Of a stretch of DNA of 64,000 bases, positions 29,705 to 46,832 are shown in pieces. How positions within the stretch are numbered: position 1 is the first letter of the stretch; each line of letters starts with the position of its first letter. Source of the DNA: Alphaproteobacteria bacterium (GTDB lineage Bacteria; Pseudomonadota; Alphaproteobacteria; Rs-D84). Below the pieces are notes generated by a model. That model searched no databases. It had not been told where the DNA came from and worked only from the letters and a program-made list of their open reading frames with translations. The translations under genes and the position numbers were made by a program. The DNA is taken from the NCBI GenBank assembly GCA_017962125.1, contig JAGCVZ010000008.1, forward strand, positions 10,677-74,676, written 5' to 3'.

Positions 29705-29762
29705 CCATAATTTTCTCCTTCCTATGATGCTGTCATCATATCATAAAAATTGGTCATTTGCA

Positions 29763-29954
29763 AAAAGAAACACCGCCGTTGCCGGCGGTATTCTTCGAAC
29801 GGCTTTGAAAGGAAGGAAAGGAGAAAAAGAAATAAGCCGTCCTAAACTTGGTAGGGGTCCAGAGTCCAGAGGAGAGAGAATGTAGGAGGGAGTCTGGAAT
29901 CTCTGGGCCCCACGAACATTTTCATGCTCGGTCAGGGATTGTTGCCTCTCTGAC
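29763..29954 (-). ncRNA. Candidate ~190-nt small RNA or leader with two CU-rich (anti-SD-like) loops
   Basis: Minus strand. SL1 (29854-29911): 16-bp interrupted stem 'GGGG-CCAGAG-UCCAGA / UCUGGA-CUCUGG-CCCC' with loop 'CUCCCUCCUACAUUCUCUCUCC'. SL2 (29799-29840): 'ACGGCUU/AAGCCGU' with loop rich in 'CUCCUUUCCUUCCUUUC'. Terminator: 'ACCGCCG..CGGCGGU' plus 'UUUCUUUUU'. Confidence 0.5.
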
Positions 29955-29961
29955 AAACGAA

Positions 29962-29990
29962 AATATAATACAACAGAAACCATTTGTCAA
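29962..29990 (-). promoter_or_regulatory. Sigma70-like promoter for the candidate sRNA
   Basis: Minus strand: TTGACA (29990-29985), 17-nt spacer, TATATT (29967-29962). Confidence 0.5.
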
Positions 29991-30139
29991 GACCTTTTGT
30001 CAAAAAAATTTTTTGGGCACCAAAAATTGGGTTAAAAATCCACTGAATTCCCCGGAAATCCTAGGAAATCGTGCTTGTTGCGGTTCTGTGCCGATGGCAT
30101 TAAAATATAGTCAAATTTAATAAAAAAAGGGAAAAAATT

Positions 30140-30388
30140 ATGACACATGAAGATGTTTGGCGCGCGATAGAGCGATTCGCAATGGAACATGGAATGTCAT
30201 GTTCGGGTCTGGCGCGGTGTAGTGGTCTGGACCCGACGACCTTTAATAAAAGCAAGCGTTGGACCAAGGAAGGTCAGCCTCGTTGGCCATCCACCAATAG
30301 CATATCAAAGATTTTGTCGTCGACTGGGGCGTCAATCCAGGAATTTACCAAGTTTATTGATAATCCTGGGCCTGAACACGCCAATTGA
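30140..30388 (+). CDS. XRE/Cro-CI-type helix-turn-helix protein
   Basis: 82 aa. 'WRAIERFAMEHGMSCSGLARCSGLDPTTFNKSKR...RWPSTNSISKIL' is the HTH pattern seen at the N-termini of alphaproteobacterial phage-repressor-like proteins. Confidence 0.7.
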   Translation: MTHEDVWRAIERFAMEHGMSCSGLARCSGLDPTTFNKSKRWTKEGQPRWPSTNSISKILSSTGASIQEFTKFIDNPGPEHAN

Positions 30389-31731: not shown

Positions 31732-31760
31732 TTGACTTTATCAGCGTTTTATGATATACT
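31732..31760 (+). promoter_or_regulatory. Strong sigma70-like promoter with extended -10 at the head of the phage-like module
   Basis: TTGACT (31732-37), 17 nt, then TGaTATACT (31752-60). Confidence 0.55.
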
Positions 31761-31790
31761 ATCGACTGTCAAAAGGGAATGTTGTATAGT

Positions 31791-31841
31791 TCGTACGTCA
31801 AGGTACGGATTTTTTTATGCCACGCATCTGCGTGGCTTTTT
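31791..31841 (+). terminator. Tandem intrinsic terminators between the promoter and the first phage-like gene
   Basis: Hairpin 1: 'tcgtac gtcaag gtacgg' plus 'attttttt'. Hairpin 2: 'gccacgc atct gcgtggc' plus 'ttttt'. The first ORF starts at 31857. Confidence 0.55.
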
Positions 31842-31856
31842 ACATAGGGAAAAATC

Positions 31857-32267
31857 ATGCAAATGGAAATAATCGAAGCTAATGATGAAATAATGACATT
31901 GTCTTATGCGGTGGCCAGAGTTGTTTATGCAGAAACACTTGCAAAATCTTTACAAGTTGTCGAAGCGTTGACATCAATGATTTTTAATGCTGCTTTGCAC
32001 GATATAAAAAATGTTCGACTTGTTATATCGGATTCGCAAATGTTCGAATCGTTACGAACCGAATCTACACGACATGAATTTTTATCAGTAGATGCATCAC
32101 GACGTGATTTTCAAATGTGCTTGCGTATAGCAAAAACTATGTTGCATGGAAATTTACCAGATACATGTCATCATGCAGTAAAATTTCATCGTACAGAATT
32201 TTTACCATCTTGGGCGGTTGCTCGCGGATACATATATGACTTGGATGGAATTTTATTTTATACGTAA
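31857..32267 (+). CDS. Cell-wall hydrolase (SleB / Hydrolase_2-like)
   Basis: 136 aa. 'VARVVYAET...', 'QMFESL' and C-terminal 'FHRTEFLPSWA....DLDGILFY' follow the SleB-domain pattern (A.V.YAE...QF...P.W...H.FY). Confidence 0.5.
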   Translation: MQMEIIEANDEIMTLSYAVARVVYAETLAKSLQVVEALTSMIFNAALHDIKNVRLVISDSQMFESLRTESTRHEFLSVDASRRDFQMCLRIAKTMLHGNLPDTCHHAVKFHRTEFLPSWAVARGYIYDLDGILFYT

Positions 32268-32285: not shown

Positions 32286-32474
32286 ATGAACAAATTTTTT
32301 CGCGGCGGTTTTTTTGCGAATCGCCGAACACAAATAATGACTGCTTGCGGAGTGGTTTCTGCGTTATGTGCATACCTTGTTGGTGATTCGGATTTGTTCG
32401 CTACGATTCAGGCTTTGATTGCGGTTGTTGGTGTTTACATGTTGCATAAAACAAATCAACAAAAAGGAAAATAA
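32286..32474 (+). CDS. Small two-TM membrane protein (holin-like by position)
   Basis: 62 aa with two hydrophobic segments ('IMTACGVVSALCAYLVG', 'IQALIAVVGVYML') and a basic tail, directly after the hydrolase. Confidence 0.4.
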   Translation: MNKFFRGGFFANRRTQIMTACGVVSALCAYLVGDSDLFATIQALIAVVGVYMLHKTNQQKGK

Positions 32475-32475
32475 A

Positions 32476-33132
32476 ATGGAAAAAGTACCAGAAAAATTTT
32501 TAAATGAAGATGGAACTTTGAATAGCGACGCATTGATAAAATCATATAATGAACTTGAAAAAAAAATTGGCGGGATGATAACTGTGCCTGATGAAAATTC
32601 AGACGAAACAGTGAAAAATCGGTTTTGGCGTGCGATTGGTGTCCCAGAAACTCCAGATGAATATCCGCATAGCGAAATGTTCGATAATGAAAACGTGCGT
32701 CAAGAATTCCATAAAATTGGATTAACAAATTCACAAGTAGAAAAAATTTACGATATTGCAAAAGAATTTTTATCACCGATTCTTGCAGAAATTTTTTCAC
32801 AGCAAAAGGAATCAAATGCGATATCGGAATTAAAAAATTTTTTTGGCAGCGAAGAAAAAATGCAAGATGCTTTTGTTGCAATTAAATCTTTTGGTGAAAA
32901 GTTTTTGCCGACAGATGCATTCAATGAATTGTGCTCTACACCCCAAGGAATACAAGGCATTTACAAGATGATGCAATCAATGGAACCACATGTTGAAACA
33001 GATGGTAATGCACCAGAAAAATTATCTGATTCTGATTTGCGAAATATGATGCGTGATCCGAAATATTGGCGTGATCATGATGTAGAATATATTCGCAAAA
33101 TTGAAAACGGTTTTAAAAAATTATATTCATAA
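32476..33132 (+). CDS. Phage scaffolding (capsid assembly) protein-like
   Basis: ATG at 32476. Acidic 218-aa protein. The N-terminal 'PEKFLNEDGTLNSDALIKSYNELEKKIG' is the pattern I associate with podovirus scaffolds. Its position upstream of the capsid gene matches T7 gp9. Confidence 0.45.
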   Translation: MEKVPEKFLNEDGTLNSDALIKSYNELEKKIGGMITVPDENSDETVKNRFWRAIGVPETPDEYPHSEMFDNENVRQEFHKIGLTNSQVEKIYDIAKEFLSPILAEIFSQQKESNAISELKNFFGSEEKMQDAFVAIKSFGEKFLPTDAFNELCSTPQGIQGIYKMMQSMEPHVETDGNAPEKLSDSDLRNMMRDPKYWRDHDVEYIRKIENGFKKLYS

Positions 33133-33249: not shown

Positions 33250-33546
33250 ATGGCATTCACATTCTTGAAAACTGCGGCAAAGAAACCTGCTGCGAAAAAA
33301 ACGGTTGCTGCTAAGAAGCCTGCGGCAAAGAAACCTGCGGCAAAGAAACCTGTCGCTAAAAAACCTGCTGTAAAGAAAGTTGCAGCAAAGAAACCGGTTG
33401 CAAAGAAAGTCGTTGCAAAGAAACCTGCTGCGAAAAAAACAGTTGCCAAAAAAGTGGCTGTAAAAAAAGTAGCTGCTAAAAAGCCGGTTGCAAAAAAAGT
33501 TGTCGCGAAGAAACCTTGTGCAAAAAAATGTGCAAAGAAAAAATAA
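33250..33546 (+). CDS. Lys/Ala-rich histone-H1-like repeat protein
   Basis: 98 aa, almost entirely (A/V)AKKP(A/V)AKK repeats, ending 'KKPCAKKCAKKK'. AGGAGAG RBS. Followed by two terminators. Confidence 0.7.
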   Translation: MAFTFLKTAAKKPAAKKTVAAKKPAAKKPAAKKPVAKKPAVKKVAAKKPVAKKVVAKKPAAKKTVAKKVAVKKVAAKKPVAKKVVAKKPCAKKCAKKK

Positions 33547-33563
33547 AAATTCGCTAAACTTGT

Positions 33564-33637
33564 AAAATGCCCGTATATCGGGCATTTTTTATAAAATTTT
33601 TCAGTCAGATGTGATCGGTCTGACTGAATTTTTTTAT
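33564..33637 (+). terminator. Tandem intrinsic terminators
   Basis: 'atgcccg tatat cgggcat' plus T6, and 'tcagtcaga ...tctgactga' plus 'attttttt'. Confidence 0.7.
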
Positions 33638-33762
33638 TTGGATAATCCAGTAATCTGGACCCGTTTAATTTTGTTCTTTGGCGCATACGTGCATAACCAA
33701 AAAACAATTTTTGGTTTGGTGAAAAATTTCACCGTGTATAACGTTTAACAAAAGGAATAATA

Positions 33763-34581
33763 ATGTCTACTTCAATAGATCAAGTGTTTGTAAAACAATT
33801 TGAAGCTGATGTTCATTTGGCATATCAACAAATGGGCACAAAATTGCGCTCAACCGTGCGCAGCAAATCCGGTGTTGTTGGTAAATCCACAACTTTTCAA
33901 AAAATAGGTAAAGGTACAGCGAGTACGAAATCTCGTCATGGTATTGTGCCAGTTATGAATTTAAATCACGAACCTGTAGAATGCAATTTACAAGATTATT
34001 ATGCGGGCGATTGGGTCGATGCGTTGGATGAATTAAAAGTTAACATTGATGAACGTCGTGTTGTAGCCTCGGCTGGGGCTTATGCATTGGGGCGTAAAAC
34101 CGATGAACTTATCATCGCGGCCATGGCTACGGCTACGCAGAATTCTGGGGATTATTCTACTGGTCTTACCAAAACTGTTATTTTGGGCGCTTTGGAAAAA
34201 TTGAATGAAAATGATGTTCCAGATGATGGTCGTAGATTCGCAGTTGTTGGTGTGAAACAATGGAACGAATTGCTTGGCATCGATGAGTTTTCGTCTGCGG
34301 AATATGTTGGTTCTGATTTGCCATTTATCAATGGCGGTGAAGTTAAAAGATGGCTTGGCATTACCTGGTTGATGCATAATGGCTTGCCGTTGTCTTCATC
34401 GACACATCGTGACTGTTTTATATATCATGCATCCAGCATTGGTCATGCGTGCGGGCAAGAAGTCAAGACGGATATATCGTGGCATGGAGAACGTGCGGCG
34501 CACTTTATTAGCAACAGCATGTCCCAGGGCGCGGTTCTGATTGATAACAGTGGAATTGTCCGTCTTAAATGTGGCGAATAA
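33763..34581 (+). CDS. Phage major capsid protein (HK97-fold type)
   Basis: 272 aa. The N-terminal 'FVKQFEADVHLAYQQMGTKLRSTVR...G....TFQKIGKG' pattern is typical of podoviral capsid proteins. It sits after the scaffold and before the gp11/12-like genes. Confidence 0.65.
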   Translation: MSTSIDQVFVKQFEADVHLAYQQMGTKLRSTVRSKSGVVGKSTTFQKIGKGTASTKSRHGIVPVMNLNHEPVECNLQDYYAGDWVDALDELKVNIDERRVVASAGAYALGRKTDELIIAAMATATQNSGDYSTGLTKTVILGALEKLNENDVPDDGRRFAVVGVKQWNELLGIDEFSSAEYVGSDLPFINGGEVKRWLGITWLMHNGLPLSSSTHRDCFIYHASSIGHACGQEVKTDISWHGERAAHFISNSMSQGAVLIDNSGIVRLKCGE

Positions 34582-34908: not shown

Positions 34909-35427
34909 ATGCTGACGAAAGTAGATTTATGTTCAATGGCACTGTTGAAATTGGGGGAAAACCCGATTCAATCTTTGTCTGAAGACACAGCGGCTGCAAA
35001 ACTTGGTCGCACTCTTGTTGATTTTGTTATAGATACATTATTGGCAATGCATCCGTGGCGTTTTGCATGTCGCACATATAACCTGATTCGTGATGAAAAC
35101 GGTGATTTTATAATACCTTCGGATATACTAAGGATTATAAAAACCAATGGCAAAGTTATGGAAAATAAAATTATATCAAATGCAGATAACTTAACTATAA
35201 CAGCCGTGGTTCGTGTAACCCCTAATGATTTTCCAAGTTATTTCGCATCACTTGTAGCAACCAAACTTGCAGTAGAATTTTGTATGCCACTTATTTCGGA
35301 TCAAACGGTTTTTAGAACTTTGGTTGCACTTTATGAAAACGAATTACAAACAGCAAAATTTATAGATAGCACAACATCAGTGAATACAAATATAGAAGAT
35401 TTTTCATTAATAAATAGTCGGTTTTAA
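34909..35427 (+). CDS. Tail tubular protein A (T7 gp11-like)
   Basis: 172 aa. 'LCSMALLKLGENPIQSLSED' parallels T7 gp11 'VNDILASIGEPPVSTLEGD', followed by a 'HPWRF' Trp-Phe motif. Confidence 0.55.
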   Translation: MLTKVDLCSMALLKLGENPIQSLSEDTAAAKLGRTLVDFVIDTLLAMHPWRFACRTYNLIRDENGDFIIPSDILRIIKTNGKVMENKIISNADNLTITAVVRVTPNDFPSYFASLVATKLAVEFCMPLISDQTVFRTLVALYENELQTAKFIDSTTSVNTNIEDFSLINSRF

Positions 35428-35449: not shown

Positions 35450-37153
35450 ATGGGAAATTTTATAAAAACTCAGGAATCTTTTGCCGACGGAGAGGTTTCA
35501 ATAAATTTTTTCGAAAATGACAACATTCATGGTGTTGCACACATGGAAAATTTTGACGTTTGTGCAGGAGGTGGACTGGTTCGTAGACCTGGATTAAAAA
35601 AATCTGCACAACTTATCATGGATGCGAGACTTGTATCATTTTCTGCATCGGAAACAGAAGAATATGTTTTAGCCATAATGAATGGTCGTATAAGAATTTT
35701 TGCAAATGATAGTTTCGTTCAAGATGTTACGACACCATGGGCGAGTTCTGACATACCAAAGTTACAATATGCACAACGCTTTGGTACGATGATATTTGTA
35801 CACCAAGATTATCCTCCGAAAATTCTTTATCGTGAAAACGGTGTTTTTAAAATTAGGAATTTTAGTTTTTCAAAATCATCTGACGGGAATACGGAAATTC
35901 CGTTTATGCGTTTCGAAGATTCTGAAAATATAACAGTAACCATCACAAATTCTGGAGGAACAATACATTTTACAACAAATGAAGATTTTTGGACACCGGA
36001 AAATGTAGGCGGACATTTACGTGCTATCGGCAAAACTTGGTTAATAAATTCTTATATTAGCGCGACAGATATAACTGCCACATGTAACGGCGCATATACA
36101 TTACCTGATGATCCAGTATCAGATTGGCAAGAGGCGGTATTTAGTCCGCGTCGTGGTTGGCCATCTGCGATAACTTTTCATCAGGATAGATTAGTTTTCG
36201 GTGGTGCTAAATCTTGGCCAGGAGGAATATGGTTGTCACAAGTTGGCAGACATGGAAATTTCGACCTTGGAACAGGACTTGATGACGAAGCCATATTTTT
36301 TACATTATTATCTGACCGCAGACAACAGGTGTGCACCCTTGTTAGTAGCGATAATTTACAGATACTTACATCCGAAGGTGAATGGGCTGTTTCAAATAAA
36401 CCGCTTACGCCGGAATCCGTAAATATAAAGATGCATACGTCGATTGGCAGTATCGCAGATAAATACTTGCCACCACAACAAATGGAAGGCAAAACTGTTT
36501 TCGTTGCAAAAAATAAGCGTGACATAAGGCAACTTAGTCTTGATGATTTAAGTGAAAAATATAATGCAGATAATTTATGTGCTTTGACCAGTCATCTTAT
36601 GAAAAATCCGGTAGATATTTCTTATAACAAAGATGCTCAGAAATTATTTGTTGTTATGTCAGATGGCAATATGGCAGTGTTAAATTATAATGCAGCACTT
36701 GGGATATCGGCATGGGGACGTTATACTACAGATGGAAAATTTACATCTGTGGTCACATGTGATGGCAAAACATTTGTTGTAGTAAAACGTGGAGATAATT
36801 TCTTTCTTGAACGTTTTGATGATTCAGAATTTGTTGATTCAACAAATTACGCATATGCTGCGACTGTATCCGGATTGCCGCTTTTGACATCGGGGCATAA
36901 TGCGAAAAATATCAGAATTAAAAAGATAACTGTTCGTGTGTACAATACAAAAACATTGTTTATCAATGATAGTCGTGTTGTTTTACCAAATGAAATTTAT
37001 GATGATACACAAGCGGGTTTCTGTGGTGATGCATCAATAAATATCTTGGGCACAAGTGTTGATTTAGTTGATACACCATGGAAAATTTCTACCACAGACA
37101 GTCTGCCGTTAAAGATATTGTCAGTGACAATATACGGAAGATATCAAATATAA
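35450..37153 (+). CDS. Tail tubular protein B (T7 gp12-like)
   Basis: 567 aa. 'GGGLVRRPGL' parallels T7 gp12 'EGLQKRPPL'. 'EYVLAIMNGRIRIF' parallels 'YYAVFTGSGIRVF'. It directly follows the gp11-like ORF. Confidence 0.5.
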   Translation: MGNFIKTQESFADGEVSINFFENDNIHGVAHMENFDVCAGGGLVRRPGLKKSAQLIMDARLVSFSASETEEYVLAIMNGRIRIFANDSFVQDVTTPWASSDIPKLQYAQRFGTMIFVHQDYPPKILYRENGVFKIRNFSFSKSSDGNTEIPFMRFEDSENITVTITNSGGTIHFTTNEDFWTPENVGGHLRAIGKTWLINSYISATDITATCNGAYTLPDDPVSDWQEAVFSPRRGWPSAITFHQDRLVFGGAKSWPGGIWLSQVGRHGNFDLGTGLDDEAIFFTLLSDRRQQVCTLVSSDNLQILTSEGEWAVSNKPLTPESVNIKMHTSIGSIADKYLPPQQMEGKTVFVAKNKRDIRQLSLDDLSEKYNADNLCALTSHLMKNPVDISYNKDAQKLFVVMSDGNMAVLNYNAALGISAWGRYTTDGKFTSVVTCDGKTFVVVKRGDNFFLERFDDSEFVDSTNYAYAATVSGLPLLTSGHNAKNIRIKKITVRVYNTKTLFINDSRVVLPNEIYDDTQAGFCGDASINILGTSVDLVDTPWKISTTDSLPLKILSVTIYGRYQI

Positions 37154-37169: not shown

Positions 37170-37514
37170 ATGGGACAAATTGTTTCAGATGTAACAGATA
37201 TTTTAAATTATAAAGAAAATAAAAACGCAGCAGAAAAAAATAAAAAGAAAATTCTATCTGACATAGAATCAGATGAAATAGAAAAACAAAATATTGTAAA
37301 TAAAGTTTTGGGGGCTCAACGTGCAAAATTTGGTGCATCAGGAATGTCTAATGATGGTGCCACCGAAAAAAATGTGCTTGATAGATTACAAAAAGAAATT
37401 GAAACTTCGTATGAAAATAAAAAGCAAGCAAATATGATGAAAATCGGCGACATAAAAACCAAGAAAAAAAATATATTAACATCAATCTTGGAACACCTTA
37501 ACAAATTGATTTAG
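37170..37514 (+). CDS. Hypothetical Lys-rich protein (small-terminase position)
   Basis: 114-aa ORF immediately upstream of TerL, as gp18 is in T7. No motif support. Confidence 0.35.
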   Translation: MGQIVSDVTDILNYKENKNAAEKNKKKILSDIESDEIEKQNIVNKVLGAQRAKFGASGMSNDGATEKNVLDRLQKEIETSYENKKQANMMKIGDIKTKKKNILTSILEHLNKLI

Positions 37515-37519
37515 AAAAC

Positions 37520-38113
37520 ATGAATCAATATGATGATTTTTTAAATTCTTGGAATCGGGTTTTGGGTTATGAAACGCCGGCGCATCATCATGAAATGACA
37601 AAGTTTCTTGCTAATGTCGTCGATGGCGATTTGCATCGTGGGTTGCTTATGGCGTTTCGACATTCTGGCAAGTCAACGATTGTAGGAATTTTTGCGGCTT
37701 GTATGTTGTATTTACACCCAGAAACGCGAATTTTAATATTGTCTGCAGAAACACATTTGGCTACACGGATGGTTATGCACATACGAAATATTTTAGAAAA
37801 TCATCCGTGGTGTGTTGATATGATACCTAAAAATAAACGAGAATGGGCAGAAAACAAAATAACAATCAATAGACCAATCGGAATACGCGAACCTTCTGTT
37901 GTTTGTCAAGGTGTTTATGGAAATATAACAGGTATGCGCGCAGATTTAATAATATGCGATGATGTCGAAGTGCCAAATACATGTAACACTGCAAGAAAGC
38001 GTGCTAATCTAAGGGAAAGACTACGAGAACTAGATTTTATATTATCACCAAAAGGTACAATGATTTATATAGGTACGCCACACACACTGGATACTATATA
38101 TCGAACGACCTAA
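37520..38113 (+). CDS. Terminase large subunit, N-terminal ATPase half (T7 gp19-like)
   Basis: 'LLMAFRHSGKSTIV' Walker A, 'RADLIICDDVEVPNT' Walker B, and 'MIYIGTPHTLDTIY' (the GTPQ coupling motif). The ORF stops about 6 aa after that motif. Confidence 0.8.
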   Translation: MNQYDDFLNSWNRVLGYETPAHHHEMTKFLANVVDGDLHRGLLMAFRHSGKSTIVGIFAACMLYLHPETRILILSAETHLATRMVMHIRNILENHPWCVDMIPKNKREWAENKITINRPIGIREPSVVCQGVYGNITGMRADLIICDDVEVPNTCNTARKRANLRERLRELDFILSPKGTMIYIGTPHTLDTIYRTT

Positions 38114-38781
38114 GATTCGTCGTGCGATGGTAAAGAACTTGTTAAACTGTGCAGGCGATGTAACAATTCTTTACCGTCATCGCCAAACATTGGTAAATAA
38201 GTTTCATATTCTGGCATATCGACTTGCAGATTTGCACGAATCTTGTCAGTTATAGGTTGTCCAAGAAGTTTGTTTGCTTCGTCCCACAACCGATAAGCCG
38301 TAGAAATACGAACAATGTCACCGAATTTTTTCAAAGCCTCGGGATTATCAGATAACACATTCCGACCTGCTGAAACCCAATCGGTGCCAAATTTTTTTAT
38401 TGCGGAAGTGTTCATAAAATCGTTCAGACCATCAGAAGTTGGGGTAAAATTGTCAATAGCCGTGAGTACATCCTGTAATTCAGATTGTGATACATCCACC
38501 GATTTTTCTGATTCTGCCATCATACCACCATACGGTAACAATTCGTGCGCAATGGAATCCATGGGGGTTTTACCTGTACGCAGATTTTCAATGTGCTGAA
38601 TTAACATTTTACCAGTGGGCAAACTTTGTAATTCGCGAATAATATCGTCATCGGCTTCGTTAACAAATACTGAATTAACCGCCGACCAACCGCCAATAAT
38701 GACGTGGGCTTGGCGATAAAGATTCAAAAGCTTCTGTGCTGTCACACTGGCTTTGGCTTTCATACTGCTTGCTCCCCCCAA
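38110..38781 (-). CDS. Hypothetical protein (first gene of the antisense cassette)
   Basis: 223-aa ORF. Its stop codon (38110-12) overlaps the TerL-N stop codon (38111-13) on the opposite strand. Confidence 0.5.
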   Translation of the reverse strand: MGGASSMKAKASVTAQKLLNLYRQAHVIIGGWSAVNSVFVNEADDDIIRELQSLPTGKMLIQHIENLRTGKTPMDSIAHELLPYGGMMAESEKSVDVSQSELQDVLTAIDNFTPTSDGLNDFMNTSAIKKFGTDWVSAGRNVLSDNPEALKKFGDIVRISTAYRLWDEANKLLGQPITDKIRANLQVDMPEYETYLPMFGDDGKELLHRLHSLTSSLPSHDES

Positions 38782-38796
38782 AAAAACGATATTCGC

Positions 38797-39807
38797 TTAA
38801 TCTACGATAACCATTATGACTTTGTGCATGGTTTTCGCAGAAATCTTTTCTTCTGGTGAAACCATTTGACCATAGATTTTGCCCTTGGAATCCTTGCGAA
38901 CAATGGCAATATTAGCAGATGCAGGCTCTTCTGATTTTAAAGAACCAAAATCAGCATCAATAAACACGCCCAAGTCCCCAGGGGACACGACCGCTTTGCT
39001 GTCCACAAAAACGTAAGATTTTTCAGGTATAAATCCACCAAGACGTTTCGAGTTTGGTATTATCGCATAAATTCCACGACGCCCTTCAAGATTTGCGGGC
39101 GCGGCAATCATATGAGAATCAGAACGTTTAAAGGATATACCTTTTCCTTCTGGCTTACCGAACACTGGTATCAATTTACGACGCGCATTATCATATAGTT
39201 TTGCACCATATAAATGACTAGGCGTTTCGTCAAAATCACTAGACGAATCACCCGGAACCAAAACCGCTTTGACGCGTTCTTTGACCTTGTCCATCTGTTT
39301 GGTCAATTCGCCAGATTTATAAAGTTCTGCGATTTTATCAAAAAGACCTTCCACCGAATGTGCGAAAGATTTTGCAAGCGGTTCAATTTCATTTTTGTAA
39401 ACTTCGCGTTGACCAACCTCAATTTTATGGTAAACAGAAAGCGTCATACCTGCATCTTTGGCGGCTTGGGCAATAGTTTTTCCTGATTGCTGACGTATCT
39501 TGCGTAAACCACTGCCAAAAATCTTAAGACCGCCATCTTCGTTATCATTCATACGGCGTGTGATTTCGTTCTGCCACTTAGATGCGACTTCATCGGTGTC
39601 CTTGATAAAAATGTCAGACAATTTGCAACCCAAGATATTACATATATTCAGTAACTGCTTTTGGTTCAAGCGTCGAACACCTTTTTCAATTTTTGAAACC
39701 GCAGATAAAGATAAATTAGACCTTCTTGCAAGTTCGGTCATTTTCATACCCGCCGCAAGTCTAATGTTACGAATGTTATTTGGAAAAATGATTTCTTCTT
39801 GAGCCAT
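38797..39807 (-). CDS. Double-HTH (XRE-type) regulator with CI/LexA S24-like C-terminal domain
   Basis: 336 aa. HTH1 is 'IRNIRLAAGMKMTELARRSNLSLSAVSKIEKG'. HTH2 is 'LRKIRQQSGKTIAQAAKDAGMTLSVYHKIEVG'. The C-terminal beta-rich domain 'GFIPEKSYVFVDSKAVVSPGDLGVF' resembles the S24 fold, but no clear Ser/Lys dyad is present. Confidence 0.65.
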   Translation of the reverse strand: MAQEEIIFPNNIRNIRLAAGMKMTELARRSNLSLSAVSKIEKGVRRLNQKQLLNICNILGCKLSDIFIKDTDEVASKWQNEITRRMNDNEDGGLKIFGSGLRKIRQQSGKTIAQAAKDAGMTLSVYHKIEVGQREVYKNEIEPLAKSFAHSVEGLFDKIAELYKSGELTKQMDKVKERVKAVLVPGDSSSDFDETPSHLYGAKLYDNARRKLIPVFGKPEGKGISFKRSDSHMIAAPANLEGRRGIYAIIPNSKRLGGFIPEKSYVFVDSKAVVSPGDLGVFIDADFGSLKSEEPASANIAIVRKDSKGKIYGQMVSPEEKISAKTMHKVIMVIVD

Positions 39808-39885
39808 ATATAATCTCCTTGGGTAAATCTTGACAAAATGATAAGGTATTTTTTGAAACTTGGCAAGTAAAAAAAATTACAAATT

Positions 39886-41439
39886 TTATTCGAATTCATC
39901 CGGAATATCATCAATGTCAATCGGCGTTGGTGCGTCACCAGATTCCGTGATTTGTGATGGCTCTGGTGCAAATTCCACCGTACGTGCCGCCATCTCATTA
40001 AGATTATCGAACAGACTATATTCTGCCAAAAAGGCAACGGTGACAGTATCTGTTCGACCATGACGATTTTTTCCGATAATGATATCCGCCTTGCCTTTGG
40101 CTTTTTCAAGCCGGTTTTGCCATGAATCGATAGATTTTTCATTTGGTGTGTTTGAAAGTCTACGAGATGGGTCGCGGTTTTGCAAATAGTATTCTTCACG
40201 ATAAGTGAACATAACGATGTCGGCATCTTGTTCAATAGAACCAGATTCACGCAAATCGGCAAGTTGTGGCCGTTTGTCGTCACGACTTTCCACACTGCGT
40301 GACAATTGAGATAGCGCAATCACCGGTACATTAAATTCCTTGGCAAGCATTTTAAGACCGCGCGTTATTTCCGATAGTTCTTGAACGCGGTTGTCATTGC
40401 GCTTTCCACCGGGCAATGTTAATAATTGCAGATAATCGATGACGATAAGCGCGATGCCATTATATTTCCGCGCAAGCCGTCGTACGCGTGTGCGAATCAT
40501 TGGCAAAGACATGCCAGGAGTGTCATCAATGAATAATGGAATCCGCCCAATAGCATCAGCAAACTGAGCCATCTTAAGAAAATCTTCATCGTTCAAAGAT
40601 GAACCCTCACGCATCGCACTTGACGGAATTCTTGTCTGAGATGATAAAACACGAGCCGCTAATTCGGAAGCCCCCATTTCAAGGCTGAAAAAAGCGACAG
40701 CTCCTTTATATTGCTCATTAGCGCGTCCAGAAAAAATAGCATTTGCGGCATTAAAAGCAATGTTCATTGCAAGTGTAGTCTTACCCATACCCGGACGCCC
40801 AGCAATAATAATCAAATTTGATTTATGCATACCACTTATTACGTGGTCTAAGTCGACAAGCCCCGTAGTTAGTCCGGAAAGCTTGCCGTCGGCCTTGTAT
40901 GCAATCTCTGCTTCGGCTAACGCGTCTTTTAACGCATTTGCGATTGGCACGACATCGCGTGTTGTGTCCCCAGTCATAGACAGATTAAACAGTTTTTGTT
41001 CGGCTGTTTCAATCTGGGCAGATACAGGGTTGTCAAGGTCTTCAATAAACGCGGCATCGGTTACAGATTGACCAAAATCAATAAGTTCACGTCGAACGGC
41101 ATTTTCATGAACAATGCGACCATATTGTTCCACGTTTACTACGGTAGCGCCAGCACTGGCTAACTGGGTCAGATATTCAACACCACCAACTGATTCCAAG
41201 GTGCCTTGTTGATCAAGATAATTTTTCGCCGTTATTATATCAAAAGGTATCCCAGCGGCAAACTGGCGCAGGGCAAGTTTATAAATTTCTTGGTGCGCAG
41301 GATGCGAAAAATCTTCTGGACGTAAAAATTCGGAAATTTTTTCCAAAGCGCGATTTTTCATCAAAACCGCGGCCAAGACCGCTTGTTCGGCCTCTAAATT
41401 AGTTGGCAAAGTTTTGGGAGTAAAGTCCATGTCAAACAT
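39886..41439 (-). CDS. dnaB: Replicative DNA helicase DnaB
   Basis: 517 aa. 'LPTNLEAEQAVLAAVLM', 'IIIAGRPGMGKTTLAMNIA' Walker A, 'LIVIDYLQLL' Walker B, 'ITRGLKMLAKEFNVPVIALSQLSR' and 'GSIEQDADIVMF'. Acidic C-terminal tail '...IDIDDIPDEFE'. Confidence 0.95.
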   Translation of the reverse strand: MFDMDFTPKTLPTNLEAEQAVLAAVLMKNRALEKISEFLRPEDFSHPAHQEIYKLALRQFAAGIPFDIITAKNYLDQQGTLESVGGVEYLTQLASAGATVVNVEQYGRIVHENAVRRELIDFGQSVTDAAFIEDLDNPVSAQIETAEQKLFNLSMTGDTTRDVVPIANALKDALAEAEIAYKADGKLSGLTTGLVDLDHVISGMHKSNLIIIAGRPGMGKTTLAMNIAFNAANAIFSGRANEQYKGAVAFFSLEMGASELAARVLSSQTRIPSSAMREGSSLNDEDFLKMAQFADAIGRIPLFIDDTPGMSLPMIRTRVRRLARKYNGIALIVIDYLQLLTLPGGKRNDNRVQELSEITRGLKMLAKEFNVPVIALSQLSRSVESRDDKRPQLADLRESGSIEQDADIVMFTYREEYYLQNRDPSRRLSNTPNEKSIDSWQNRLEKAKGKADIIIGKNRHGRTDTVTVAFLAEYSLFDNLNEMAARTVEFAPEPSQITESGDAPTPIDIDDIPDEFE

Positions 41440-42277
41440 AGTATACGAAAAAAATGTTTTTTCAACGCCTTTTTTATCTGGTTATGCAGAATTAAAAATT
41501 CCAGTGGTTGATAATAGCGGAAATCCAGCTTGGCCATCGGTTTTTCCAGTAGAAAAAATAGCAGAAATTCGTAAAACAGTCGGAGATAGGCATTTTTCGG
41601 CACAAATGATGTTGGAATATGTTGCACCAGATAAAATACGTCTTGACCCAGGAGGAATAAAATTTTACGAGACAGATTTTGACAAACATAGTTGCAAAAT
41701 TGGTGAAACACTTGTAACTGGGGCGACAATATATTGGGATCCTTCTGGGGGACGGAAAAATTCCGATGAAAGTGTTTGTGTGATTATTTATCGCGATGAC
41801 CAAACACACCGTTTTTTCATCCATGATATGATTTACCTTACTGTACCGGATGGTGTCGAATACCCGTTGACATATCAATGTGACAAGGTTTTGGGGTTTG
41901 TTCGCATGCATCGCCAAAGAGTGCTTTCTGTTGAAACAAACGGAATCGGTGCGGCGTTACCAGAAATAATGCGTGAAACAATTATGCGCGCAGGTTACGA
42001 GATACAAATTCGCCCGATTACCAACAGTCGTCGCAAAGAAGATAGAATTTTGGATGCCATAGAACCATTGCTTACAACTGGTCGACTTTACGCCCACCAA
42101 CGCATAACCCAGACTCCTTTTATATCGGAAATGTTAGCATGGACACCAATTGGTGGTGGTGAACATGATGACGGATTGGATGCGGTCGCAGGGGCAATTT
42201 TATCTTTGCCTACACCGATGCGCCCCATTGGAAAAAATGTTCGCGGCTATATTGCGAACACAGATTTTAAACTTTAA
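41429..42277 (+). CDS. Terminase large subunit, C-terminal nuclease half (T7 gp19-like)
   Basis: 'HFSAQMMLE' (T7 'GFTLQFML'), 'IYWDPSGGRKNSDES' (T7 'VIDPSGRGKDETG') and 'GEHDDGLDAVAGA' (T7 'AHDDRLDALALG'). ATG at 41429 behind GGGAG. The 5' end overlaps the dnaB start on the other strand. Confidence 0.75.
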   Translation: MSNIVYEKNVFSTPFLSGYAELKIPVVDNSGNPAWPSVFPVEKIAEIRKTVGDRHFSAQMMLEYVAPDKIRLDPGGIKFYETDFDKHSCKIGETLVTGATIYWDPSGGRKNSDESVCVIIYRDDQTHRFFIHDMIYLTVPDGVEYPLTYQCDKVLGFVRMHRQRVLSVETNGIGAALPEIMRETIMRAGYEIQIRPITNSRRKEDRILDAIEPLLTTGRLYAHQRITQTPFISEMLAWTPIGGGEHDDGLDAVAGAILSLPTPMRPIGKNVRGYIANTDFKL

Positions 42278-42292
42278 CCAAAAGGAAACAAA

Positions 42293-43519
42293 ATGAAATA
42301 TGATTTACAAAAAATGTACTCACGTGCAATGGCATTGCGAGAACCATGGATTAAACGCTGGTCAGATGCGCGCCGTTATACCATGCCGACGTCTGACGAA
42401 GAAATTGCAACATTATTTGATGGAACAGCTGCAGATGCGGCAGATAATTTGGCAGCATGTATGTATTCATTGTTAACACCACCGGAATCATTGTGGTTAA
42501 ACCTTGTCCCAGAATCTGAAGAATCTCCGGATGCGGTTACGGCGACCATGGCATTGCGTTCTAACTTGAACGAATCAAATTTTTATACAACGATTCATCA
42601 GTGTTATCTTGACTTGGTAACCATGGGAACGGCATGTCTGTTTATGGCTGAATCACCAATTGGCGCGGCAAGTGCATTTAATTTTACAGCAATCCCAATT
42701 ACAGATATTGCAATTTTACCGAACGCCATATTCCATACTGCTATGATTACCGCCCAAGATGTTGCTATTCGTTATCCTGAATGGACACCACCGCGTGCAA
42801 TCCTTGATGCTATGAAGCAAAATCCAGAATATCAACTGCGTCTGGTCCAGGCATTGGTAGATACTGAATTTACCGCATGGATAGATGTAGGGGGAAATAT
42901 TGAAAATAATATCGTATCAAAAGGAACTTTTGAAACTAACCCATATATTGTATTCCGTTGGGCACTAGCAAGTGGTGAATTATATGGTCGTGGTCCTGTC
43001 TTGCGCGCACTTCCTGACATCAAAACGGCGAACAAGGTCGTTGAACTTGTTTTAAAGAACGCCACTATTGCGGTAAGTGGTATATGGCAAGCCGATGATG
43101 ATGGTGTCATAAACCTTAGTAATATAAATCTTATGCCGGGTGCAATAATTCCAAAAGCCGTAGGCAGCACCGGTTTAACACCGCTTTCAACCGGTGCAAA
43201 CTTTGACGTGTCGCAAATAATTCTGAAAGATTTGCGCGAACGCATTCGCCATACAATGCTTGCAGATAGAATAGGCACACTTTCAGATAAGGAAATGACA
43301 GCAACAGAAATACTTGCGCGGAATGCGGATATGTTGCGCATCTTGGGCGCTACATACGGGCGATTGTTACATGAATTTATCAGACCATTATGTGATCGTG
43401 GATTACAGATACTTGCACGTCGTGGTGTAATAGACAAAATATCATTACACAGTGATGCAGAATTAAAATATATTGCGCCAATTGCGCAAATGGTTGCGGA
43501 AAACAGCACATTGATATAG
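42293..43519 (+). CDS. Phage portal (head-to-tail connector, T7 gp8-like)
   Basis: 408 aa. 'YSRAMALREPWIKRWSDARRYTMP' parallels gp8 'YERLKNDRAPYETRAQNCAQYTIP'. 'KEMTATEILARNADMLRILGATYGRLLHEFIRPL' parallels 'ERVTAEEIRYVASELEDTLGGVYSILSQELQLPL'. Confidence 0.65.
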   Translation: MKYDLQKMYSRAMALREPWIKRWSDARRYTMPTSDEEIATLFDGTAADAADNLAACMYSLLTPPESLWLNLVPESEESPDAVTATMALRSNLNESNFYTTIHQCYLDLVTMGTACLFMAESPIGAASAFNFTAIPITDIAILPNAIFHTAMITAQDVAIRYPEWTPPRAILDAMKQNPEYQLRLVQALVDTEFTAWIDVGGNIENNIVSKGTFETNPYIVFRWALASGELYGRGPVLRALPDIKTANKVVELVLKNATIAVSGIWQADDDGVINLSNINLMPGAIIPKAVGSTGLTPLSTGANFDVSQIILKDLRERIRHTMLADRIGTLSDKEMTATEILARNADMLRILGATYGRLLHEFIRPLCDRGLQILARRGVIDKISLHSDAELKYIAPIAQMVAENSTLI

Positions 43520-43529
43520 GGGGAAAACA

Positions 43530-43736
43530 ATGGAAAAAATTGCACATGAATATGCGCGCACTTTTTCAAACGCATCGGGAAAAGCGGTTATTTCACATTT
43601 ACGCAAAATAACAATAGAAAGATTTTTAGGACCGCATGCAACAGATAGTGAACTTCGTTCTCTTGAAGGTGCGCGTGCGCTGGTTCATCAAATTGAAACT
43701 TTAATTGAACGGGGGCAAGCAAATGCCAAAGTCTAA
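43530..43736 (+). CDS. Small phage protein (Bbp19-like)
   Basis: 68 aa. The 'ARTFSNASGKAVISHL...ELRSLEGARALVHQIETLI' pattern is recalled from the Bbp19-like family of BPP-1-type podoviruses. Low certainty. Confidence 0.35.
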   Translation: MEKIAHEYARTFSNASGKAVISHLRKITIERFLGPHATDSELRSLEGARALVHQIETLIERGQANAKV

Positions 43737-43980
43737 TGGACTATCAAATATTATCGATGTATTACGCAGTGGTTGGTTCCTAATAGTGTTTATCGCCGGA
43801 ATGATATATTGGGTCGCCCGACAAGATAACGCTTTGGTTGAACTTGATCGATTGACCGTTCGTATGACGACACTTGAAAACCGAACAACTGTTTTAGAAA
43901 CGGGAATAGGGCAACTGCAACTAAAAATAGATGGCATCAAAGAAGATTTGACATTAATAAAAACAGCTGTCATAAGATAA
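43723..43980 (+). CDS. Membrane-anchored coiled-coil protein
   Basis: ATG at 43723. TM segment 'GWFLIVFIAGMIYWV' followed by heptad-like 'LDRLTVRMTTLENRTTVLETGIGQLQLKIDGIKEDL'. Confidence 0.45.
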   Translation: MPKSNGLSNIIDVLRSGWFLIVFIAGMIYWVARQDNALVELDRLTVRMTTLENRTTVLETGIGQLQLKIDGIKEDLTLIKTAVIR

Positions 43981-44016
43981 AAAAACCGCGGGATTTTTCC
44001 CGCGGTTGATTTTTTA
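43981..44016. terminator. Bidirectional intrinsic terminator closing the phage-like module
   Basis: 'aaaaa ccgcggg attttt cccgcgg ttgatttttt'. Confidence 0.75.
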
Positions 44017-45460: not shown

Positions 45461-46122
45461 TTCTCTTCGACTAAAACCCTTTGAACCCTAAAAAAGAAAA
45501 CGAGTGCCGGATCAATGCCACGTTGCAATGCTGCTTGGACGTTTTCAATCGGTTGTTTTATATCCCCAATACGTTTGACCCAATCATCACCCCCAAGATC
45601 AAGATATATTACGCCACGTGTTATTGTCGGATTTTCAGACATATCATTTGGTTTATACCAAGTTTTTAATTCATAATCAACCCTCCAATAATCACTTGAT
45701 GCGGGTTTATAGATTGCATCAAAAACAATAACGTTGCGTCGCACCCCTTGTGACGATAATTGCTGAATTTTTGGTAATTCCTTTTTTTCCCAATAATCCA
45801 GTGCCGCCGGCGCAGACATTATGTATAAAGGCGGGTTATACCTTTTTTCTGTGCGACGAGTGATGTTTTCTTTATCTGGGACTATATAAAAATATTCTGT
45901 AACATATTTCTGGATAAGCCAATTTCGTAATTTACTTTTCCCTATTTCATCCCAAGATTTTGGCATTCCTGGCAAATCGTTTGATTGGGTGCTTGTACGC
46001 AAGAAATACGTTTCAACTTCGAACTTATCACTTGTGTCATAGATAGACGCGGCAACATAAATTGCACCAAAAACCATAATTATTGTCATAAAGCCAAATA
46101 AAAATCCAATCAGTTTTTTCAT
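45457..46122 (-). CDS. Bitopic membrane protein, possible VirB8/NTF2-like fold
   Basis: 221 aa. N-terminal TM segment 'LIGFLFGFMTIIMVFGAIYVAA' followed by a ~190-aa periplasmic domain ('WLIQKYVTEYFYI'). ATGA overlap on both sides. Confidence 0.35.
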   Translation of the reverse strand: MKKLIGFLFGFMTIIMVFGAIYVAASIYDTSDKFEVETYFLRTSTQSNDLPGMPKSWDEIGKSKLRNWLIQKYVTEYFYIVPDKENITRRTEKRYNPPLYIMSAPAALDYWEKKELPKIQQLSSQGVRRNVIVFDAIYKPASSDYWRVDYELKTWYKPNDMSENPTITRGVIYLDLGGDDWVKRIGDIKQPIENVQAALQRGIDPALVFFFRVQRVLVEEK

Positions 46123-46832
46123 TGCGATTCCCTATAAGCTTTGAAATCCGCCACATAAAAACCAAGTGTTTGTGGATAACGTTCTATATCATATGCAATT
46201 TTGACATAGGCGATAACATCAAAATCCCCATTTAGATTTGATTGTACACGCGCCCTAACAATCCATGTGCCACCATTGGCAGAATTCGCATTCTTGTTCC
46301 TTTCGCCGCTTGAAATAGTGATTTTATCCGAATTTACAAACCAACGTTGCCCCATAGATTCATATTCTTTATACATCGGCAAAACATTATCCGCAAAATT
46401 TCGATACATGTTGTCACCAGCCATACAATAAATATCGCAACCAATATCAGTTTCAAAAGTGTTGCTAACGCGATCTGTACACGCTGTGGCTCTGTCACAT
46501 TGCATCCAGTTCTTGCTGTTTACCCCAGGATTATCAGAAATAGTAAACCATTTTTTTGTGAAAATCCCCGCTAAGGCCCGTTGCATAGAGTCATAATATG
46601 GAACGACTATATTAGGTCTTACTTGCCCGACCATTTCCCATTTACCATGCATACCGTCAACATAAATCACATAAGGACTAACCGTGCGGTTATTTTGCAA
46701 GTATGGTATAGCAATGCAACACGCAACAACCAAAAAGAAAGCAACCATTACCCACACGCCAAAGGTGCGCGAAATCGCGATTCTTTTCCCGGCGGGAAAC
46801 GCGGGTGTATTAAAATCTTCTGGGTAATCCAA
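46119..46832 (-). CDS. VirB8-like bitopic inner-membrane protein
   Basis: 237 aa. ~25-aa cytoplasmic N-terminus, TM segment 'FGVWVMVAFFLVVACCIAI', then 'SPYVIYVDGMHG'. The C-terminal 'TLGFYVADFKAYRE' resembles the VirB8 'NPLGFxVxxYRxD' ending. Confidence 0.45.
   Translation of the reverse strand: MDYPEDFNTPAFPAGKRIAISRTFGVWVMVAFFLVVACCIAIPYLQNNRTVSPYVIYVDGMHGKWEMVGQVRPNIVVPYYDSMQRALAGIFTKKWFTISDNPGVNSKNWMQCDRATACTDRVSNTFETDIGCDIYCMAGDNMYRNFADNVLPMYKEYESMGQRWFVNSDKITISSGERNKNANSANGGTWIVRARVQSNLNGDFDVIAYVKIAYDIERYPQTLGFYVADFKAYRESQ

Follow-up and report, generated by a model that had tools for sequence, protein, structure and literature searches.

A large terminase encoded in two genes around an antisense dnaB cassette within a podovirus-type particle-gene cluster of Candidatus Enterousia-like alphaproteobacteria

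A stretch of 64,000 nucleotides from contig JAGCVZ010000008.1 (assembly GCA_017962125.1, positions 10,677 to 74,676), called the window here, was analysed. The window is not a phage genome but lies in the chromosome of a Candidatus Enterousia-like alphaproteobacterium (order Rs-D84, genome of <1 Mb). It contains a T7-type large terminase (TerL) gene that is divided between two open reading frames (ORFs) on the plus strand. The first, TerL-N (37520-38113), encodes 197 amino acids (aa) and carries the ATPase core as far as motif III, with Walker A RHSGKST, Walker B LIICDDVE and GTPH. It ends 9 residues past GTPH, immediately beyond the conserved DTIY. The second, TerL-C (41429-42277), encodes 282 aa comprising the remaining ATPase segment (residues ~1-70) and an RNaseH-type nuclease with the motifs YWDPS, ETNG and DDGLDA. 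The distance between the halves is 3.3 kb and is occupied by three minus-strand genes. These are p217, an all-alpha orphan (38110-38763) whose stop overlaps that of TerL-N, a regulator with two helix-turn-helix (HTH) domains (38797-39807), and dnaB, a housekeeping-type replicative helicase gene (39886-41430). This naturally split terminase enclosing an apparent host replicative helicase gene is real, conserved and unusual.

All five ORFs lay where the original prediction had placed them, and PHROG, NCBIfam and the alignment to gp19 agreed that TerL-N and TerL-C together form one complete T7-type terminase. In a profile search TerL-N matched positions 273-459 of phrog_38 and TerL-C matched positions 483-711. 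The NCBIfam model termin_lrg_T7 (NF033889, 225 bits) was covered at positions 2-190 by TerL-N and at positions 332-500 by TerL-C. Pfam placed Terminase_6N in TerL-N and the T7 RNaseH-like nuclease (PF22530, PF17289) in TerL-C. When concatenated, the two halves gave a single high-scoring segment pair against T7-like TerL (tblastn), and in phmmer their alignment to PhiV-1/T7 gp19 was gapless through the junction, placing residue 197 at about gp19 residue 213. The combined length of 479 aa (197 + 282) compares with 477-505 aa in the nearest unsplit relatives. In the alignment with these relatives TerL-N terminates at ...GTPHTLDTIYRTT and TerL-C resumes in a short variable linker before the conserved FLxGFxRLxIP. 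The TerL profile match reached residue 195 of 197 in TerL-N and resumed within ~10 residues of the start of TerL-C. Nothing is missing at the break site and it holds no intein-sized extra sequence. The pair contains an ASCE (additional strand, catalytic glutamate) ATPase in which Walker A, Walker B and coupling motif III are all present, and a C-terminal RNaseH-fold nuclease with acidic metal ligands. The single continuous polypeptide of ~480-590 aa was replaced by two ORFs in 77/77 complete loci. One detail of the earlier alignment changed, as T7 'RGYTTI' aligns to 'IVYEKN' and not to 'SGYAEL' of TerL-C. A short duplication at the break (TIY / IVY) was considered and rejected; T7-like TerLs have both tyrosines (TLY...KGY) and the alignment is gapless.

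From an alignment of 35 sequences, AlphaFold2 (AF2) gave a TerL-C model with a confident RNaseH-type domain at residues ~70-260 and a low predicted local distance difference test score (pLDDT) at residues 1-70. These first residues are well conserved (FSTPFL, IP, GNPAWP, HFSAQMMLE) despite the low model confidence when modelled alone. TerL-C matched the fold of the T7-like terminase 8dgc_E best (E=6.4e-13), ahead of nuclease domains from the terminases of P22, herpes simplex virus (HSV), human cytomegalovirus (HCMV), Sf6, RB49 and SPP1. The model places the break inside the ATPase domain and not between the ATPase and nuclease domains. The N-terminal segment of TerL-C probably needs TerL-N in order to fold.

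TerL-N was used to scan GTDB species representatives; this gave 367 candidate loci, of which the best 80 were kept and analysed. All of these 80 came from Candidatus Enterousia or uncultured Alphaproteobacteria metagenome-assembled genomes (MAGs), and their sources were the rumen, hindgut and faeces of ruminants, horses and chickens. Split-type terL was present in every one of their contigs covering the region. They included a 958,618-bp circular long-read chromosome and contigs of up to 688 kb. The contexts fetched for relatives had an identical gene order throughout. TerL-N homologues formed 856 clusters; the 120 listed were of 177-217 aa with 73-92% identity, from uncultured Alphaproteobacteria on contigs of <=350 kb. 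TerL-C homologues formed 787 clusters, almost all of 279-288 aa. Two short TerL-N-like representatives (P0123 and P0136) were uninformative, being on contigs of 949 and 1,237 bp. A 402-aa 'TerL-C' (P0398) had an internal duplication and was most likely an assembly artefact.

Orthologous loci in relatives were the comparison proposed with the original prediction. The split, the orientation (+ - - - +) and intact halves were shared by 77/77 loci containing all five genes, and none of the 77 had an internal stop in TerL-N, TerL-C or dnaB. Walker A (FRHSGKST), Walker B (ADLIICDDVEVPNT; LIICDDVEVP) and motif III (GTPH) were invariant in 15 sequences, and the nuclease motifs YWDPS, ETNG and DDGLDA in 74 sequences. 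TerL-N varied between 196 and 211 aa among loci. Because every TerL-N ends right after DTIY(R/K), with a variable tail of 2-17 residues, the comparison points to a single ancient break point. Selection was measured as the median pairwise ratio of nonsynonymous to synonymous substitution (dN/dS, NG86, pairs with dS 0.05-1.5). The ratio was 0.11 for TerL-N and 0.18 for TerL-C, with birA at 0.16, the portal gene at 0.074 and the capsid gene at 0.088 for comparison, values which are rough with dS near saturation (~1.3) and of which the direction is clear. In the cassette it was 0.065 for dnaB, 0.083 for the regulator and 0.23 for the 217-aa protein, while p136, an endolysin-like gene near the promoter of the cluster, had 0.32. 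Both halves of the terminase are under purifying selection as judged from these ratios.

A terminase split by unrelated genes, if seen in a single genome, has the look of a dead prophage or of a chimeric contig. The same layout was found in >80 independent assemblies, among them the circular long-read chromosome, and these came from many hosts and pipelines; this excludes an assembly artefact. The dN/dS values of 0.11-0.18 and the invariant catalytic motifs exclude an inactivated gene whose halves stayed open by chance. The layout also persists in genomes of <1 Mb, which shed dead genes (PMC12306168). The probability of a decaying prophage remnant or an artefact is thus negligible. Among the possibilities listed in the original prediction, the evidence favours a functional two-subunit terminase, given the identical split in 77/77 loci, the purifying selection, the invariant motifs and a TerL-C with its own Shine-Dalgarno (SD) sequence and ATG.

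The split was also found outside Enterousia. Loci L174, L177 and L178 belong to a diverged lineage of termite-gut type from a Joint Genome Institute (JGI) metagenome with 50% GC (L177/L178, 1-20600). The identity of L174/L177 to the window proteins was 65% for TerL-N, 57% for DnaB, 76% for the capsid protein and 56% for the portal. The break point was the same, with TerL-N ending in ...DTIYQV before its stop and TerL-C starting with MSPFLRNYSLLKIP, and dnaB again lay between the halves, here directly convergent with TerL-N. The insert consisted of dnaB and an 834-aa Cys-rich protein in place of the HTH gene and p217, both of which were absent from the 20-kb L177 locus. The cluster of this lineage holds other cellular genes too: scaffold and capsid are separated by an M48/tetratricopeptide repeat (TPR) peptidase and two 221-aa genes, and TerL-C and portal by pilin-like and ParA-like genes. 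Because the diverged lineage shares the break point with dnaB inside, both the fission and the nesting of dnaB are older than Enterousia, and the halves have long been independent genes.

Unsplit TerL relatives (477-505 aa, <=52% identity) were found in other bacteria in similar compact clusters flanked by host genes. In one of these, L012, the order was TerL-...-portal-Bbp19-scaffold-capsid-tubeA-nozzle and a Hydrolase_2 gene was present. A second split TerL was found in another bacterium on a 1.47-Mb contig (L093/L094, 10001-11480). It is 43-44% identical and broken at the same site, into adjacent overlapping ORFs with a textbook coupling junction (GGAGGAG...ATGGGTGA) and no insert. No head or portal genes were nearby, and OLD-like and M78 genes were among the neighbours. 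This fission looks independent of that in Enterousia because a rough neighbour-joining (NJ) tree groups the L093/L094 TerL with full-length TerLs. In addition, a high-GC TerL (L095, 317-1237) has an in-frame TAA between GTPHSY and TIYAD, a few residues from the Enterousia break. L095 is a single 1.2-kb contig and the stop could be an error or mark a pseudogene. Because L093/L094 and L095 break there too, the site just after motif III seems to tolerate breakage.

The junctions of the halves with the cassette were gap-free and no non-coding DNA was present at either, so that the zero intergenic DNA claimed earlier was borne out by the ORF map. At the left junction the stops of TerL-N and the p217 gene (p223 in its longer form) overlap by 4 nt in 61/77 loci. 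This junction is poorly conserved, both in the TerL-N tail and in the 3' end of p217. At the right junction the ATG of dnaB and the in-frame ATG of TerL-C overlap back-to-back in the palindrome CATG in 72/73 loci. Two starts had been offered for each gene, and the comparative data fixed them at 41430 for dnaB (MDFTPK) and 41429 for TerL-C, and not at 41439 and 41414. The SD of TerL-C is purine-rich (GGGAG), 8-9 nt upstream of the ATG and inside dnaB codons 3-5. A conserved candidate dnaB promoter on the minus strand (41438-41465, TTGAAA-16-TACTAT) is contained in TerL-C codons 4-13, with ~7 nt between its end and the dnaB ATG. The third-codon-position entropy of TerL-C codons 4-15 was 0.17 compared to 1.19 on average over the gene, direct evidence that an element is embedded in the start of TerL-C. 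We infer that the element is the dnaB promoter and that the dnaB mRNA is leaderless or near-leaderless.

An excised or inverted element of the skin or nifD kind had also been proposed. The cassette would be excised in doomed particle-producing cells, recreating an intact terL. Cells that produce gene transfer agents (GTAs) die, so the loss of dnaB would be tolerable in them, and the two frames can in principle be joined. Against this, neither a recombinase nor end repeats, the features of a developmentally excised element, were found: Pfam and NCBIfam scans of the cassette gave no recombinase domain, and the junctions held no repeats beyond chance. The weak similarity between 'tatatatcgaa' and tagtatacgaaa reported earlier is attributable to chance, the longest shared k-mers having a mean of 5.6 nt compared to 6.0 nt in shuffles over 73 loci. 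The left junction with its variable TerL-N tails (196-211 aa), the SD and ATG of TerL-C in 72/73 loci and the housekeeping-type dnaB inside the cassette are also at odds with excision. In L177 the insert differs in content and the split point is the same, and in L094, the only other split found at this site, the ORFs are coupled and adjacent with no insert. Inverting the cassette would leave the halves still separated. Conditional rearrangement is therefore very improbable.

Joining of the halves at the RNA or protein level, by split inteins or by a huge cis- or trans-spliced intron, would likewise give a single TerL polypeptide. Inteins, introns and 'fractured gene' layouts are known from terminase genes (PMC2677866), and splicing joins the herpesvirus TerL gene across the genes nested in it (PMC6466031). 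In the window the TerL matches leave no room for an N-intein of 88-105 aa or a C-intein of 33-54 aa (PMC2677866), and split-intein fragments were not found at the broken ends. No group I or II intron ribozyme was found at the interruption, with no Rfam intron family matching between 30000 and 46000 even at E<=1, and the junctions leave no non-coding DNA for one. We consider such joining extremely improbable.

The nested helicase was compared to cellular and phage families. DnaB matched the alphaproteobacterial equivalog NF006606 over its full length with a score of 589.7 (cutoff 540) and TIGR00665 with a score of 503 (cutoff 385.25). Its score of 401.7 against phage_DnaB (TIGR03600) was below the cutoff of 498.65, and the best phage DnaB homologues had 42-49% identity. 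By these scores DnaB is of the cellular alphaproteobacterial type, and the nested gene would by inference be the cell's own helicase gene. It is presumed to be the only copy in the genome, judged solely from the genome size of <1 Mb (PMC12306168).

The regulator is a 336-aa protein with two PF01381 (HTH_3) domains and a non-catalytic C-terminal domain, and is very strongly conserved (84% mean column identity). It had been described as a double-HTH CI/LexA-like protein. The two HTH domains were confirmed but the likeness to LexA/CI was not: residues 190-336 had no Peptidase_S24 match in Pfam even at E<=1, and the candidate serine (NSKR) lies outside the conserved columns, while K254 and R255 are conserved. 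The Ser-Lys dyad of an autocleaving LexA/CI repressor was therefore not found. The spacer between dnaB and the HTH gene holds a conserved candidate promoter for the regulator on the minus strand (39828-39866, TTGCCA-17-TATCAT), followed by a conserved 10-mer TTTGTCAAGA and an SD. The third gene had been called as a 223-aa ORF (38110-38781). The ORF is present and most likely starts at ATG 38763, so that the protein has 217 aa (MKAKAS...) like its homologues. Searches of Pfam, PHROG and NCBIfam gave no match for p217. It is clade-restricted, with 1117 homologue clusters in which every listed match carrying a source name was an Alphaproteobacteria MAG. The AF2 model of p217 was confident (pLDDT 81.7) and had no Foldseek match at E<=0.001 in PDB or BFVD.

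The cassette could also be of phage origin, with dnaB, the HTH regulator and p217 as early-region leftovers of an ancestral temperate phage, the phage dnaB adopted by the host and the whole a rearranged prophage. In temperate podoviruses, genes for DnaB-type helicases and CI-type repressors are often found on the strand opposite to that of the structural genes. PHROG families match DnaB and the regulator, and the regulator adjoins the particle genes and could control them. The helicase scores, above the alphaproteobacterial cutoff and below that for phage_DnaB, and the identity of just 42-49% to the best phage DnaB, argue against this origin. So does the insert of L177, where dnaB is joined by the unrelated 834-aa Cys-rich protein with the HTH gene and p217 absent from the locus, and where plainly cellular genes are interleaved elsewhere in the cluster. 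A phage-derived cassette is on balance distinctly unlikely.

The terminase halves belong to a cluster of particle genes of ~12 kb (31.7 to 44.0 kb) on the plus strand, between birA and yraN. It begins with a candidate sigma70-like promoter (31732-31760, TTGACT-17-TATACT) in which CTTGACTTT and the -10 hardly vary among 62 loci. The leader, ahead of the first gene, then has two tandem intrinsic-terminator-like hairpins with T-runs (31788-31836). RNAalifold predicted 15 pairs in these hairpins with compensatory changes in every pair (27 loci). A promoter followed by terminators is a classical signature of anti-termination control. Because the conserved promoter precedes two covarying terminators, the layout of the leader suggests that the cluster is controlled in this way.

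The first gene is p136 (31857-32267), which is SleB/Hydrolase_2-like and matches the endolysin family phrog_938 (E=1.7e-5). It is followed by a 62-aa hydrophobic protein (32286-32474), possibly holin-like, which had only faint family matches and the gene of which is called in relatives. A T7-type scaffold (capsid assembly) gene lies at 32419-33132 (PF05396, E=2.2e-8), with a probable start at ATG 32473, and its relatives are likewise annotated as PF05396. Between scaffold and capsid is a gene for a basic, lysine/alanine-rich 98-aa protein of KKPAA repeats, similar to histone H1/Hc2 (33250-33546; PF07382 HC2, E=7.5e-16). It is kept in relatives and could be a DNA-condensing protein packaged in the head. 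The major capsid protein is encoded at 33763-34581 (PF19821, E=3.3e-75; phrog_3437). Next are a 77-aa conserved phage protein (34606-34839; phrog_18004, E=2.9e-12), tail tubular protein A, the adaptor (34909-35427; phrog_394, E=1.8e-32; weakly PF17212), and tail tubular protein B, the nozzle (35450-37153; phrog_376, E=5.2e-86). The L012 orthologue of tubular protein B matches PF25675 (Phage_nozzle). A possible internal virion protein, p114 (37170-37514; phrog_418, E=0.0017, weak), precedes TerL-N. TerL-C is followed by the T7-type portal, or head-to-tail connector (42293-43519; PF12236, E=1.8e-80), a small Bbp19-like phage protein (43530-43736; PF25181, E=4.7e-9) and p91 (43705-43980), which has a transmembrane segment and a coiled coil, is weakly XhlA-like (PF10779, E=0.0079) and may be lysis-associated. 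A strong bidirectional terminator hairpin at 43984-44007, scored on both strands and with a 10-bp stem that includes 7 GC pairs, is predicted to close the cluster. Terminators were also found behind the histone-like and capsid genes.

The flanking genes are cellular: an outer membrane protein (OMP), a tRNA methyltransferase, birA, yraN, a VirB8-like protein and a class II aminoacyl-tRNA synthetase. When the cluster and its flanks were scanned with Pfam, PHROG and NCBIfam, neither an integrase nor an excision or phage replication module was found, and the only replication gene in the region is the cellular-type dnaB. In the related loci that reach the flanks the cluster occupied the same position between birA and yraN, even where BirA was only ~60% identical, and the cluster proteins diverged in step with the flanking host proteins. 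A structural gene cluster that is chromosomally fixed and vertically inherited, and lacks integrase, excision and phage replication genes, has the genomic features of a GTA. The cluster is read as a domesticated, vertically inherited particle-making element of the GTA kind and of the T7/BPP-1 podovirus type. A scan of viral contigs gave mostly provirus calls of ~10 kb excised from Enterousia contigs and not free phages. Among IMG/VR records 284 stretches matched, and the ~10-kb 'UViGs' examined (L097-L173) are the chromosomal cluster including dnaB. The provirus label given to these loci by virus-prediction pipelines is probably wrong. A paper on the order Rs-D84, to which Enterousia belongs, describes genomes of mostly <1 Mb and mentions no phage genes (PMC12306168). 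No description of the cluster was found in literature searches on phages or GTAs of Enterousia/Rs-D84, split terminases or Bbp19.

We consider it probable that an ancient gene fission gave a two-piece terminase that works in a domesticated GTA-like element. The terL of the ancestor would have undergone fission inside the ATPase domain, just after motif III and ~10 residues past GTPH. TerL-N and TerL-C would be translated independently, TerL-C from its own SD and ATG, and would reassemble non-covalently by fragment complementation into a two-piece terminase docking on the portal. The intervening DNA would be neither an intron nor a mobile insert but ordinary cellular genes with their own conserved opposite-strand promoters. 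The cluster is probably driven from its one conserved promoter, behind which lie the two tandem terminators, implying anti-termination like that by GafZ in the Caulobacter crescentus GTA (CcGTA) or by lambda Q. More speculatively, anti-terminated polymerases might read through the antisense dnaB cassette to TerL-C and the portal gene and collide with dnaB transcription. Both the production of particles and this route for TerL-C transcription are proposed from the gene content and layout.

Several points weigh against this reading. No small terminase (TerS) gene was identified in the cluster, and no tail-fibre gene was identified in the cluster of the subclade to which the window belongs. To split a RecA-like ATPase fold internally is demanding in structural terms. 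A consensus scan and a synonymous-constraint scan of the cassette gave no plus-strand promoter for TerL-C. The consensus scan found 50 sites compared to 42.7 +/- 6.5 in shuffles, which is not an enrichment, and the lowest third-position entropy in the cassette was 0.63 compared to 0.17 at the embedded dnaB promoter, used as the positive control. The read-through route entails 3.3 kb of head-on transcription through dnaB. The near-saturated dS noted above and the descent of the cassette from an ancestral phage and not the host, which is conceivable in principle, count on the same side.

That no TerS gene, and in the subclade of the window no fibre gene, was identified also fits an exaptation of the halves for purposes other than packaging. 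They would then serve in separate or new roles, for instance in defence or DNA processing, where TerL-C might be a stand-alone nuclease and TerL-N an ATPase. Alternatively the particles would be empty or carry protein, and there would be no two-piece motor. The split TerL of L093/L094, which stands alone without head genes and beside defence-like genes, indicates that isolated TerL pieces are able to persist in the chromosomes of bacteria. In Enterousia, by contrast, the halves lie within a complete head, portal and tail cluster whose members are under similar purifying selection. The coupling motif of the ATPase and the metal-binding motifs of the nuclease are both invariant, and the first ~70 residues of TerL-C are conserved yet predicted not to fold alone, which fits pairing with TerL-N. 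Exaptation without packaging is accordingly rated as unlikely, and the two-piece terminase as the better account. A wider version of the latter is put forward tentatively, and as a whole is open to doubt. In it a podovirus-derived GTA-like element with a two-chain motor would extend across the order Rs-D84/Candidatus Enterousia, and the essential dnaB would be locked between the halves, so that the element could not be deleted, with antagonistic coupling of particle production to dnaB expression, through head-on and anti-terminated transcription, as a further possibility.

The closest systems in overall plan are the GTAs of Rhodobacter capsulatus (RcGTA) and C. crescentus. Like these, the Enterousia cluster is a chromosomally fixed, vertically inherited and compact set of head, tail, portal and terminase genes with lysis genes, and lacks integrase and phage replication genes. 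In CcGTA anti-termination control has been demonstrated, with GafZ acting together with NusA, NusG and NusE (PMC11150451), and the promoter followed by terminators in the Enterousia leader suggests the same. It differs from RcGTA and CcGTA in having a podovirus-type module (T7/BPP-1: PF12236 portal, PF05396 scaffold, tubular proteins A and B) where these have an HK97-type siphovirus module. It also differs in that the terminase is encoded by two genes that enclose cellular ones, that no TerS was recognised and that the host is a gut symbiont with a genome of <1 Mb.

The nearest arrangement of the terminase gene itself is in the herpesviruses. In HSV-1 the enclosed genes UL16 and UL17 are antisense to UL15. 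The original prediction knew of no terminase interrupted by a multigene antisense block containing a helicase; the enclosing of other genes does have an analogue in UL15/UL89, where two terminase exons enclose two genes in alphaherpesviruses and four to five in beta- and gammaherpesviruses (PMC6466031). In both cases the ATPase-nuclease coding sequence is interrupted by kilobases with complete genes. The herpesvirus halves are rejoined by mRNA splicing whereas in Enterousia each half has its own start and stop, and the break point in the protein is elsewhere. Bacteria lack a spliceosome. In 'fractured genes' the broken ORFs carry split inteins and a free-standing homing endonuclease, and one case is a gp17-type terminase (Dassa et al. 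2009, PMC2677866). These likewise have a gene broken into two ORFs with another gene between, but no intein fragments or homing endonuclease were found here, and the intervening helicase, regulator and orphan are all on the opposite strand. Compared to T7 gp19 and PhiV-1 TerL (PDB 4BIJ, 8DGC) the family is the same and all the catalytic motifs are present (NF033889, phrog_38, 8dgc_E fold). The gp19 protein is a single chain of 586 aa, while here chains of 197 and 282 aa are broken at about gp19 residue 213. The skin and nifD elements resemble the cassette in that a multigene segment interrupts a gene; the cassette differs from them in having no recombinase and no junction repeats, an apparently essential dnaB inside and halves that are autonomous ORFs.

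TerL is a model ring ATPase. If the two-piece reading is correct, a naturally split TerL would show that the ATPase fold can assemble from two chains, and would offer a ready-made system to separate ATP hydrolysis from DNA translocation and cutting. GTA-like elements would also come to include some that descend from podoviruses, and their hosts would include abundant uncultured symbionts of the rumen and gut. A virus-derived particle cluster under strong selection in genomes of <1 Mb argues for a benefit to the cell, and its interleaving with essential host genes shows the depth of domestication.

A number of further observations were made in and around the cluster. The leader of the capsid gene (~33560-33760, plus strand) is a conserved region of ~200 nt with a near-invariant 11-bp inverted repeat, TTCAGTCAGAT...GTCTGACTGAA (33600-33628), and a TGGATAATCCA palindrome, and has no Rfam match. 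In L004 an extra gene (9472-10020) between p114 and TerL-N encodes a 182-aa protein with a weak match to the T7 tail-fibre N-terminal domain (PF03906). This gene was present only in other Enterousia subclades and absent from that of the window. Upstream of the cluster the region 29983-30388 contains an 82-aa ORF (30140-30388, plus strand) that is HTH-like by eye (...GLDPTTFNKSKR...RWPST...), with no Pfam match at E<=0.001. A structured-looking, relatively GC-rich non-coding stretch lies upstream of it (29750-29990) and had no Rfam match at the gathering threshold. The 82-aa gene is preceded by TTTGTCAAGAccTTTTGTCAAAA, and the same 10-mer is found at 39828-39837, just downstream of the -10 of the regulator promoter. 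The 10-mer may be an operator shared by the two genes; the motif occurred 13 times in the window compared to 7.8 +/- 2.6, which is only marginally above chance. One MAG, JAZTWT01, had two separate copies of the locus (L080 and L086) on different contigs, reflecting either strain mixing in the bin or a true duplication. Downstream of the cluster the VirB8-like protein (46119-46832, minus strand; PF04335, E=3.1e-5) hints at nearby type IV secretion genes.

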